A stretch of DNA of 64,000 nucleotides from Escherichia phage PMBT57, in sequence record MG770228.1; one strand, written 5' to 3'. Both the position numbers and the translations under genes were made by a program. Positions 53,331 through 54,366 of this stretch are shown piece after piece (positions within the stretch are counted from its first letter, which is position 1; each line of letters starts with the position of its first letter). The notes under the pieces were generated by a model. It had not been told where the DNA came from. It saw only the letters and a list, made by a program, of their open reading frames with translations, and made no database searches.

Positions 53331-53537
53331 ATGTTTAAGTTCTTAGACCTTATCTGGGCAGTCATTTTGCTGGTTGCTACAGGCTTTGTATATGGCTTCT
53401 TGCTCCCATCAATGATGTCTGCTTTAGACAGCATCATTGTTGTTATGGGCTTGATAGTCTGTATTGTGTGGCCTCTTATCGTAGGCCGTATCGTTTATCT
53501 TACAGTTAAGAAAAGGATGAGAAGAAAACATGTATAA
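53331..53537 (+). CDS. small two-TM membrane protein
   Basis: 68 aa from the ATG at 53331 (GGAG RBS): MFKFLDLIWAVILLVATGFVYGFLL...VVMGLIVCIVWPLIVGRIVYL, then a basic tail. It overlaps the SPFH gene by 8 nt. Confidence 0.7.
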   Translation: MFKFLDLIWAVILLVATGFVYGFLLPSMMSALDSIIVVMGLIVCIVWPLIVGRIVYLTVKKRMRRKHV

Positions 53538-54366
53538 GTACATTGCAGTAGCAATTGCAGGGCTAATCATTGCTCTAAGTTTAACGAGCTGCTATGACCG
53601 AGTTGAACCAGGTAATGTAGGTATTATCGTTAATCGTCTCGGTGAAGATAAAGGTGTGGAAAATGAGGTTAAAGGTGTAGGCCGTTACTGGCTCACTTGG
53701 AATGAAGAACTTTATACATTCCCGACCTTTAAGCAGATGAAGACCTATGACGGTCTGTTCTACTTCCAACTGTCTGATGGTACTCAGATAGGCCACCAGA
53801 TGGCTATCAGCTATAAAGTGAACCCTACTAAGGTAACTAATATCTTCCAGACGTATCGTAAGGGAGTTAATGAAATTACTGAGCAGGATTTACGACAACG
53901 TATTGCTGATGTACTTAACAGACAGGGTAACCTGATTAACACTGATACCTTTATTGATGGTGGTAAATCTAAGCTACTGGATAGTGTCACTGACACAATC
54001 CGTAAAGAGATGGAACCAGTGGGGATTGATATTATTGCTATCTCCTGGATTGGTGCTCCTGAATACCCTGATAACGTTAAACGTGCCATTAATGCCAAAG
54101 TAGAAGCTACTCAGAAAACTCTGCAACGTGAGCAAGAGATTCAGCAACGTGTAGCTGAAGCTAATATGGAACGTGAACAAGCTAAGGGTGTAGCAGATGC
54201 TATTCTGATTAAGGCTAAAGCAGAGGCTGATGCTATTCGTTTACGTGGTGAAGCACTCACTGAGAACCCAAATGTAATGCAACTGGAAGCCATTAATAAG
54301 TGGAATGGTACATTACCTACCACAATGATTCCTGGGGCTACTACACCTTTCGTTAATGTGAAATAA
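53530..54366 (+). CDS. SPFH/band-7 (prohibitin/HflC-like) lipoprotein
   Basis: 278 aa. The signal peptide has an LTSC lipobox. VEPGNVGIIVNRLG... is SPFH-core-like, and a C-terminal Ala/Glu coiled coil (QREQEIQQRVAEANMEREQAKG) is typical of band-7 proteins. Confidence 0.75.
   Translation: MYKYIAVAIAGLIIALSLTSCYDRVEPGNVGIIVNRLGEDKGVENEVKGVGRYWLTWNEELYTFPTFKQMKTYDGLFYFQLSDGTQIGHQMAISYKVNPTKVTNIFQTYRKGVNEITEQDLRQRIADVLNRQGNLINTDTFIDGGKSKLLDSVTDTIRKEMEPVGIDIIAISWIGAPEYPDNVKRAINAKVEATQKTLQREQEIQQRVAEANMEREQAKGVADAILIKAKAEADAIRLRGEALTENPNVMQLEAINKWNGTLPTTMIPGATTPFVNVK

Follow-up and report, generated by a model that had tools for sequence, protein, structure and literature searches.

In the 64,000-nucleotide stretch of Escherichia phage PMBT57 analysed here (MG770228.1, below called the window), which is of the N4 type of coliphages (Enquatrovirus), the adjoining genes gp19 and gp20 very likely encode two subunits of one membrane scaffold complex, because they are conserved neighbours, and are sometimes fused, in many phages and prophages. 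The gene gp19 (53331–53537, plus strand, ATG at 53331) encodes a membrane protein of 68 amino acids, and gp20 (53530–54366, plus strand, ATG at 53530) encodes a 278-amino-acid precursor of an SPFH/Band_7 lipoprotein. The two products matched PHROG 1130 ('membrane protein', E 2.7e-20) and PHROG 200 ('lipoprotein', E 6.8e-95), respectively, and the RefSeq record of phage N4 labels gp19 as 'membrane protein' and gp20 as 'lipoprotein'. Between 52900 and 54450, the window shares 98.7% identity with phage N4 and 99.6% with VEc25. The stop of gp19 and the start of gp20 overlap by 8 nucleotides (ATGTATAA, 53530–53537, plus strand), which suggests translational coupling of gp19 to gp20, and a GGAG is located 8 nucleotides 5' of the gp19 ATG. 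In relatives, the partner gene and the SPFH gene overlap by 1–20 nucleotides or are separated by a gap of 3–10 nucleotides.

Conserved linkage, natural fusions and distribution

Co-occurrence of the two genes, which an earlier note on this DNA had proposed to follow in N4-like phages, was found to be strong and to reach well beyond this group. Among the IMG/VR loci, 80 encode an SPFH protein with 62% or more identity to gp20, and in all 80 an open reading frame (ORF) of 66–78 amino acids with two transmembrane (TM) segments directly adjoins the SPFH gene on its 5' side or runs into its start. Partner ORFs of distant phages, with an SPFH identity of 30–50%, could also be aligned with the gp19 family, i.e. 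those of N4-like phages of Alcaligenes and Stenotrophomonas, Pseudomonas phage PAN70, Ruegeria phage V10, and a crAss-like phage. A hidden Markov model (HMM) of the gp19 family was searched against all stop-to-stop segments of at least 30 codons in the loci and in the whole window (693 kb, 12,031 segments). Exactly one segment matched in 92 of 98 loci, always on the strand of the SPFH gene and upstream of it, and no match was found among the remaining approximately 12,000 segments, the rest of the window included. An independent second set of loci, from bacterial genome contigs, gave one upstream segment in 15/16; both sets pooled, one upstream partner match on the same strand was present in 107 of 114 loci.

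Some of these matches came from outside the training set and were not picked by eye, namely those in a Pseudomonas Bruynoghevirus, Erwinia SNUABM_55, a 422-kb contig, a Shigella prophage, and a P1-like plasmid. The partner is located two genes upstream in the Bruynoghevirus, and one gene lies in between in Erwinia SNUABM_55. At two loci, from a Shigella flexneri and an E. coli chromosome (4230–4995), about 770 nucleotides separate the gp19-like ORF from the SPFH gene, which may be an insertion. In the Stx2a phage LC567840 (about 2255–2444) and the E. coli plasmid NZ_CP077453 (2733–2966), an ORF of the gp19 family is present but unannotated; upstream of the SPFH gene, the PGAP annotation of this plasmid lists only a pseudogene fragment. 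A search of the gp19-family profile against a set of 5.8 billion proteins yielded only six significant matches, as the protein is too short for a database of this size; this global search was underpowered for 68 amino acids, and the absence of gp19-like genes away from SPFH genes is a result for the loci and the window searched.

Both parts are also found in one chain. Of the best 150 representatives at 50% identity, 19 carry an N-terminal extension of 54–99 residues, and the HMM detects a gp19-type hairpin N-terminal to the SPFH domain in 18 of 389 family proteins. The order is hairpin, third hydrophobic segment, usually ending in a lipobox Cys, and SPFH domain, and the Cys after the third segment is kept in 17/19 fusions. 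For 15 of the 18 fusions, the nearest SPFH relative is unfused, so that fusion or fission must have occurred repeatedly. In its SPFH part, the fusion P0074 shares 93% identity with an enterobacterial protein that is unfused, and the fusion P0156 is a called gene of 382 amino acids on a phage-like contig. In Ruegeria phage V10, both genes lie in the same frame, and only a stop codon and a single additional codon come between them. When neighbouring genes are fused again and again, this is commonly taken as evidence that their products act in one complex. From their order of segments, the fusions also appear to fix the topology, with the hairpin in the inner membrane and the SPFH domain on the periplasmic side of this membrane. 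Scans of viral contigs with the fused representatives P0131 and P0123, both single proteins, gave one partial locus and none, respectively, and a scan of genome contigs with a consensus-like representative gave no match. The retained lipobox Cys raises the question whether fusions are cleaved by signal peptidase II into two pieces.

Relatives of gp20 were found by tblastn in 722 of 50,697 phage records. They occur in N4-like phages of several genera, in Stx-converting and other lambdoid phages, in P1-like phages, and in phages of Pseudomonas, Burkholderia, Erwinia, Klebsiella, Caulobacter, and Ruegeria, as well as in crAss-like phages, Lak megaphages, and, more distantly, Staphylococcus Kayvirus. 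Both lytic and temperate phages carry the module. An exhaustive HMMER search of 1.84 billion cluster representatives identified 963 clusters at E ≤ 1e-10. Most family members are metagenome singletons on phage-sized contigs, and both contexts that were inspected look like phage genomes. The gp20 family is mainly a phage family, and mainly one of lipoproteins. Of 5,426 complete E. coli genomes, 510 (about 9%) contain a close relative, at 418 chromosomal and 172 plasmid places.

The position of the module differs between these genomes. On a Shigella chromosome and in the Stx2a phage, it lies within the operon from cI to xis/int, the early-left operon of lambdoid prophages. In N4 it is part of a terminator-bounded block after the RNAPII genes, and in several lytic phages it is found among genes of nucleotide metabolism. 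A P1-like plasmid (E. coli O111:H8 pIDPH8234-1, 1574–5034) carries it in a variable locus between tRNA genes, next to a gene of the Thoeris anti-defence Tad2 family. The P1 genes plp/upl ('putative lipoprotein' and 'upstream of plp') were considered as a candidate for this pair and ruled out, since the canonical P1 locus holds small unrelated genes on the minus strand that match neither HMM. In phage P1, plp/upl (11349–12001) occupy the position which is held by the module in the P1-like plasmid, and only P1 variants and P1-like plasmids carry the module, not canonical P1. Public phage records mislabel the SPFH protein as 'serine protease', 'transposase', 'putative ion transporter', or 'outer membrane lipoprotein', whereas Pfam shows only Band_7.

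SPFH fold, lipoprotein signal and predicted membrane topology

The assignment of gp20 to the SPFH proteins, made in the earlier note from the letters alone, survived both profile search and fold comparison. The protein matched Pfam Band_7 (PF01145) at E 1.7e-23, with 84 bits against a cut-off of 23.6, and residues 24–210 cover model positions 2–175 of 176. An AlphaFold2 (AF2) monomer model, built from 99 homologues, had a mean predicted local distance difference test score (pLDDT) of 89.3. In this model, residues 22–178 (53593–54063, plus strand) form a beta-rich SPFH1 (22–97) and an alpha/beta SPFH2 (99–178), for which the pLDDT is mostly above 90. The C-terminal Ala/Glu coiled coil proposed earlier was recovered as one continuous predicted helix of 65 residues (181–245; 54070–54264, plus strand), which is supported by the AF2 model and the alignment, is rich in Ala, Glu, Gln, and Lys, and corresponds to the wall helix of SPFH cages. 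Its content of Ala plus Glu is 34% vs 16% in whole gp20, and Ala209, Ala211, Ala218, Ala229, and Ala233 along it are nearly invariant in the family. A short helix (residues 248–257) and a tail with the motif K-W-N-G-x-L-P complete the C-terminus (54265–54363, plus strand); this tail is flexible, and the monomer model gives it a low pLDDT. In the homologue alignments, W258 and G260 do not vary, P263 shows at least 90% conservation, and the KWNGxLP tail is presumed to serve as a cap or oligomerisation element.

When the model was compared with the PDB by Foldseek, the top 36 matches were all full-length chains of SPFH rings or cages, i.e. prohibitin, HflK/C, erlin, stomatin, flotillin, and QmcA, with E values from 1e-12 to 1e-7 and alignments over 186–298 columns. 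Judged by its modelled fold, gp20 is a genuine SPFH protein and belongs with the cage-forming members. The conserved helix Ala residues and W258/G260 would be compatible with tight helix packing, a cap, and a cage, and are no proof of one. The gp20-family profile is at a similar distance to QmcA, HflK, prohibitin, and HflC (E 2e-7 to 3e-4). The only NCBIfam match of gp20 was to the HflC equivalog model and stayed below threshold (19.6 bits, cut-off 134.4), and no HflK match was obtained with the equivalog models TIGR01933 and TIGR01932. By these near-equal distances and the low HflC score, the gp20 family is best placed as a separate SPFH branch and not as an orthologue of HflK/C. The mention of HflK/C in the earlier note could therefore not be upheld as family membership, the more so as there is a single SPFH gene and no paralogue pair.

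The N-terminus of gp20 reads MYKYIAVAIAGLIIALSLTSC and contains the lipobox L-T-S-C with Cys21. This type-II (lipoprotein) signal peptide (53530–53592, plus strand; Cys21 codon at 53590–53592, followed by Tyr at +2 and Asp at +3) starts with M-Y-K, continues with hydrophobic residues 4–17, and ends with L18-T19-S20-C21. This fits a lipoprotein, for which a positively charged n-region, a hydrophobic h-region, and a lipobox [LVI][ASTVI][GAS]C some 15–35 residues from the start are expected. Cys21 is at least 90% conserved in 99 gp20 homologues, and a lipobox Cys directly precedes the SPFH domain in 333 of 389 sampled relatives, so that the lipoprotein signal pointed out earlier is present in gp20 and its Cys is conserved family-wide. 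The SPFH domain is predicted to face the periplasm because signal peptide and lipobox precede it and because, in the fusions, it follows the third hydrophobic segment after an N-in/C-in hairpin.

The membrane in which a lipoprotein ends up depends on the residue behind the Cys. The family includes 108 enterobacterial members, of which 50, the prophage and plasmid forms, have Asp at +2 and 56, from N4-like lytic phages, have Tyr; the remaining two have Trp and Glu, respectively. In Enterobacteria, Asp at +2 is a Lol-avoidance signal which retains a lipoprotein in the inner membrane (PMC4623201). A residue typical of outer-membrane sorting was found at +2 in none of the 108 members. Aromatic residues at this position reportedly also gave inner-membrane retention in the work of Seydel et al. 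in 1999. The gp20 protein of N4 thus likely resides in the inner membrane.

Hydropathy indicates two TM segments in gp19, at about residues 7–25 and 34–52, and bears out the two-TM partner of 68 amino acids described in the earlier note. The short loop holds an acidic residue, and the C-terminal tail, KKRMRRKHV, is strongly basic. According to the positive-inside rule, which is well established for membrane topology, gp19 should adopt an N-in/C-in orientation, that is, an inner-membrane hairpin with a short periplasmic loop and a basic cytoplasmic tail. In an alignment of 26 family members, a signature was recognised at the periplasmic end of TM1 (residues 22–34, G-F-L-L-P-S-M-M-S-A-L-D-S; 53394–53432, plus strand), in which Ser30 is invariant and Pro26 at least 90% conserved. 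The signature motif of the family after TM1 can be written as G-x3-P-x-[LM]-[IVMF]-S-[ASTG] and includes a conserved P-x-L-x-S loop motif. With its length, two TM helices, and this motif, gp19 fits its own family definition (approximately 60–85 amino acids), and gp19 of the window matched the family HMM at E 4.6e-17. No Pfam family was matched by gp19, the only Pfam line being a sub-threshold hit to a transmembrane segment. The P-x-L-x-S-[AS] part of the motif resembles a signal peptidase I site, and TM1 might be cleaved.

Proposed assembly, possible role and competing explanations

The best explanation, which taken as a whole is given about an even chance, is an SPFH ring or cage in the periplasm that is anchored to the inner membrane, contains gp19 as TM subunit, and fences the inner membrane. 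In such an assembly, gp20 would be exported and acquire a lipid at Cys21, which would keep it at the periplasmic surface of the inner membrane, where it would oligomerise to a ring or dome like HflK/C, prohibitin, and stomatin, using its SPFH domains, the 65-residue helix, and the KWNGxLP tail. The gp19 protein would be made in step with gp20 via the overlapping stop and start codons, insert as an N-in/C-in hairpin, and supply the transmembrane palisade that is absent from a lipid-anchored SPFH protein. The wall and lipid anchor would then be provided by gp20, and the TM helices which HflK/C or prohibitin subunits carry themselves by gp19. The natural fusions would show the same arrangement in one chain, with the hairpin followed by the third hydrophobic helix, the lipobox, and the SPFH domain. 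We infer the oligomeric cage and the contact between gp19 and gp20 from homology and gene fusion, and the inner-membrane location and the role are proposals as well; gene structure, SPFH fold, family-wide lipobox, conserved linkage, fusions, and wide distribution in phages are direct results of the analysis.

Cages of the SPFH type surround part of a membrane and govern both access to it and activity within it. The least certain step of the proposal is the role: in the pre-late phase of infection, the assembly may fence off part of the inner membrane and hold or exclude a client, and the membrane would thereby stay sealed and energised. Entry channels of superinfecting phages, membrane-attacking effectors of abortive infection, and premature holin action would be the targets, with FtsH as main alternative client. 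A generic envelope function, i.e. corralling or excluding pore-forming or translocating machines, is favoured because of the accessory pre-late placement of the module and the very different receptors, hosts, and lifestyles of the phages carrying it.

Several points weigh against this explanation. Part of the training set of the partner HMM had been selected for lying upstream of SPFH genes, and only about seven distinct partner types are represented among the 80 IMG/VR loci. Distant SPFH clades, namely those of Staphylococcus phage K, Bacillus SWEP1, CbK, GAP32, and Erwinia Hena2, have no gp19-type partner. The +2 residue of N4 gp20 is Tyr, not Asp, and its retention in the inner membrane would depend on the effect reported for aromatic residues; an outer-membrane sorting of gp20 would split the two proteins between different membranes. 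In the literature searched, only annotation remarks and speculation were found, and no experiment on gp19/gp20 or on phage SPFH proteins. More than 60 rapid-lysis mutants of N4 have been selected, with no reported allele in gp19 or gp20 (10.1101/2025.11.12.688109), and this study of N4 lysis inhibition does not mention the two genes. The roles suggested in the earlier note, namely superinfection exclusion, protection from membrane effectors of abortive infection, and control of lysis timing, are hypotheses, the protective role included.

FtsH is regarded as the strongest alternative client; to our knowledge, no other client has been described for a bacterial SPFH cage that faces the periplasm. 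By mimicking HflK/C, the phage cage might capture the periplasmic domain of FtsH and change which membrane and regulatory proteins are degraded, thus tuning CII/CIII stability and the lysis-lysogeny choice in temperate relatives, and protecting phage membrane proteins or altering envelope homeostasis in N4. A periplasm-facing SPFH domain behind a signal peptide and lipobox is in line with HflK/C and unlike QmcA, YqiK, and flotillins, HflK/C chains are among the best structural matches, HflC gave the only, albeit sub-threshold, NCBIfam match, and FtsH is universal, in line with the wide host range of the family. The lambdoid module also lies between cI and xis/int in the early-left operon, where lambda keeps its FtsH inhibitor cIII. 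Nevertheless, capture of FtsH appears rather unlikely, as the family is no closer in sequence to HflK/C than to QmcA or prohibitin, the score with the HflC model falls far short of the cut-off, a single SPFH gene stands in place of an HflK/HflC pair, and N4, crAss, CbK, and Kayvirus phages are lytic and have no lysogeny decision to tune. A lysis-timing device is a weaker candidate and distinctly unlikely, because the genetics of N4 lysis and lysis inhibition so far point elsewhere: the lysis genes are gp60–63, far from gp19/gp20, and the rapid-lysis mutants fall into lysis-cassette, virion RNA polymerase (vRNAP), terminal-repeat, and miscellaneous classes. Here, gp19 would be holin- or antiholin-like and gp20 would organise or restrain holin rafts, and the pair would thus contribute to lysis inhibition in N4 and to its long latent period. 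The size of gp19 and its two TM segments with a basic tail do correspond to the layout of a small holin, and the analogous Kayvirus pair mbpV/mbpS is encoded just after holA-lysK, MbpV having been noted as holin-like (PMC7150955). Membrane proteins are the targets of lysis inhibition in N4, for which the sensor has yet to be identified (10.1101/2025.11.12.688109). Most phages, however, keep the module among early/middle and nucleotide-metabolism genes and not in lysis cassettes, and the family is common in phages not known for lysis inhibition.

Distribution, fold, and fusions make it very unlikely that gp20 is an exclusion lipoprotein of the outer membrane which masks a receptor from inside, as T5 Llp does with FhuA, and that gp19 is an unrelated neighbour. 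The family spans phages with unrelated receptors and hosts (N4-like phages, Stx phages, P1-like plasmids, Pseudomonas, Ruegeria, crAss), the architecture is that of a full cage-forming SPFH protein and not a small receptor-binding fold, many relatives are fused to an inner-membrane hairpin, and prophage members carry the inner-membrane signal Asp at +2. Masking would agree with gp20 being a lipoprotein without Asp at +2 and with the upstream neighbour gp18, which belongs to a family labelled 'superinfection exclusion', and Llp-type lipoproteins are a known phage strategy (PMC9586334). Finally, the two genes might be mere neighbours, with a separate function of gp19 and with gp20 acting alone, e.g. 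in lysogenic conversion or as an immunostimulatory lipoprotein, comparable to PM0222, an SPFH protein of a Pasteurella prophage. Early regions of phages often contain small membrane ORFs, such as the nearby gp23 with 56 amino acids, some SPFH clades have no adjoining gp19-type gene, and the HflK/C-like protein of the Pasteurella prophage was reported as a virulence factor (PMC9872710). Mere adjacency is hardly credible, though, with a single partner match per locus in 107/114, always upstream on the same strand and none elsewhere, with overlapping stop and start codons, and with recurrent independent fusions; moreover, N4 is lytic and there is no lysogen to convert.

Extended beyond N4, the scaffold explanation would mean that an SPFH cage in the periplasm, with a dedicated palisade subunit of the gp19 family, is made by tailed phages from many lineages and walls off a patch of inner membrane, either as a shield against competing phages and pore-forming effectors or for the capture of a universal machine such as FtsH. 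In this breadth, the proposal is a tentative possibility. If it is true, the module would be a general viral device for membrane compartments and the first characterised virus-encoded SPFH complex, with a type of partner unrelated to NfeD. SPFH scaffolds such as prohibitin, stomatin, flotillin, and HflK/C were recently shown to form cages that compartmentalise membranes. The module is abundant (Stx prophages and P1-like plasmids are among its carriers in E. coli), and it is available in a compact, tractable two-gene layout in a classic model phage. The client enclosed by a gp19/gp20 complex would reveal a common phage strategy for the host envelope, and the pair could serve as a minimal system for the assembly of SPFH cages. 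In practical terms, the small partner gene is often absent from annotations, and the SPFH gene is widely mislabelled.

Genomic setting and comparison with known systems

The earlier note had described gp19 and gp20 as a gene pair with an 8-nucleotide overlap which forms its own terminator-to-terminator unit, and both the coordinates and the flanking hairpins agree with this description. Upstream, a terminator-like hairpin (GCCCTCC-TAT-GGAGGGC, then TTTTTT; 53297–53313, plus strand) with a 7-bp stem and six GC pairs closes the gp18 unit, and downstream, an intrinsic-terminator-like hairpin is followed by ATTTTTT (54373–54395, plus strand). A strong hairpin with a T-run is located 3' of each of gp16, gp17, gp18, and gp19-20 (51954–51979, 52894–52912, 53297–53313, and 54373–54395), and the region 51900–56500 contains 10 such sites vs 2.6 expected from shuffles. 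This part of the N4 genome therefore seems to be cut into very short terminator-bounded units.

Just upstream of gp19, in a hairpin-bounded unit of its own, gp18 (52942–53256, plus strand) matched Pfam PF17420 'GP17' (P22 gene-17-like, E 2.4e-56) and PHROG 1510 'superinfection exclusion'. P22 gene 17 helps the phage to escape exclusion by another prophage and is not known to cause it, so the label of gp18 may mislead. The PADLOC-DB models gave no match for gp18, gp19, or gp20 at E ≤ 0.01. Downstream, gp23 (55012–55182, plus strand), a small and largely hydrophobic membrane protein of 56 amino acids (PHROG 23946), directly follows a gene for an HNH endonuclease (54655–55011). The gene gp25 (56438–57580, plus strand) is called 'HNH endonuclease' in RefSeq and PHROG, but its product matched Pfam DUF2201_N (putative metallopeptidase, E 1.3e-86) and the VWA-like domain DUF2201, and the label looks wrong. 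It is preceded by gp24 (55212–56270, plus strand), which encodes an AAA ATPase, and this suggests a two-gene ATPase/VWA module.

Parts of this picture are already known: the genes and the domain are annotated, and the logic of an SPFH protein with a small membrane partner is familiar from NfeD-SPFH and YdjG/H-YdjI. Why a phage should carry an SPFH gene 'remains unclear' according to a 2026 paper on an N4-like phage (PMC13239085). In the literature searched, no description of the partner family, its fusions, or the family-wide lipobox was found, and the two-subunit module and its breadth appear to be undescribed there.

Small early membrane proteins or lipoproteins that modify the envelope of the infected or lysogenic cell are known from T4 (Imm/Sp), P22 (SieA), and T5 (Llp) (PMC10883804, PMC9586334), but these have no relation to gp19/gp20 in sequence or fold, and none of them is an SPFH protein. 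A closer likeness in logic exists to B. subtilis YdjG/YdjH-YdjI (SamGHI) with PspA, where small membrane proteins are reported to recruit an SPFH protein to the membrane in a context of stress protection (PMC8581546; 10.64898/2026.02.06.704340). YdjI faces the cytosol and works with PspA, in a cellular and not a phage system, and no homology of its partners to gp19 was seen. In Kayvirus (Staphylococcus phage K), the SPFH protein MbpS, 30% identical to gp20, is likewise preceded by a gene for a small membrane protein, MbpV, with a 1-nucleotide overlap, and a published remark on this pair gives no more than speculation about its role (PMC7150955). Unlike gp19, MbpV has a single TM helix and a charged tail and is undetected by the gp19-family profile, and unlike gp20, MbpS has a TM anchor and no canonical lipobox; the MbpV/MbpS pair adjoins lysis genes.

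The operons of SPFH and NfeD proteins (QmcA-YbbJ, PDB 8Z5G; YqiK-YqiJ) also have a small membrane-protein gene next to a co-oriented SPFH gene, and QmcA is the best PDB profile match of the gp20 family (E 2e-7). The NfeD partners known to us have the opposite gene order or a soluble domain. The NfeD logic invoked in the earlier note does not apply in the strict sense, as gp19 has neither an NfeD/OB-fold domain (PF01957), for which a 68-amino-acid hairpin leaves no room, nor any Pfam match; furthermore, QmcA faces the cytoplasm, whereas gp20 is predicted to be exported. The E. coli HflK/HflC-FtsH cage (PDB 7WI3, 7VHP, 9CZ2) shares with gp20 the order of SPFH1, SPFH2, long wall helix, and C-terminal cap segment, its chains rank high structurally, and it is a periplasm-facing scaffold with an anchor in the inner membrane, as would be the case for gp20. 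Identity between gp20 and HflK/HflC is only about 15–18%, and the phage-encoded module has one SPFH gene and no heteromeric paralogue pair. In HflK/HflC each subunit carries an N-terminal TM helix, whereas the phage module combines a lipid anchor on gp20 with a separate two-TM protein, gp19.

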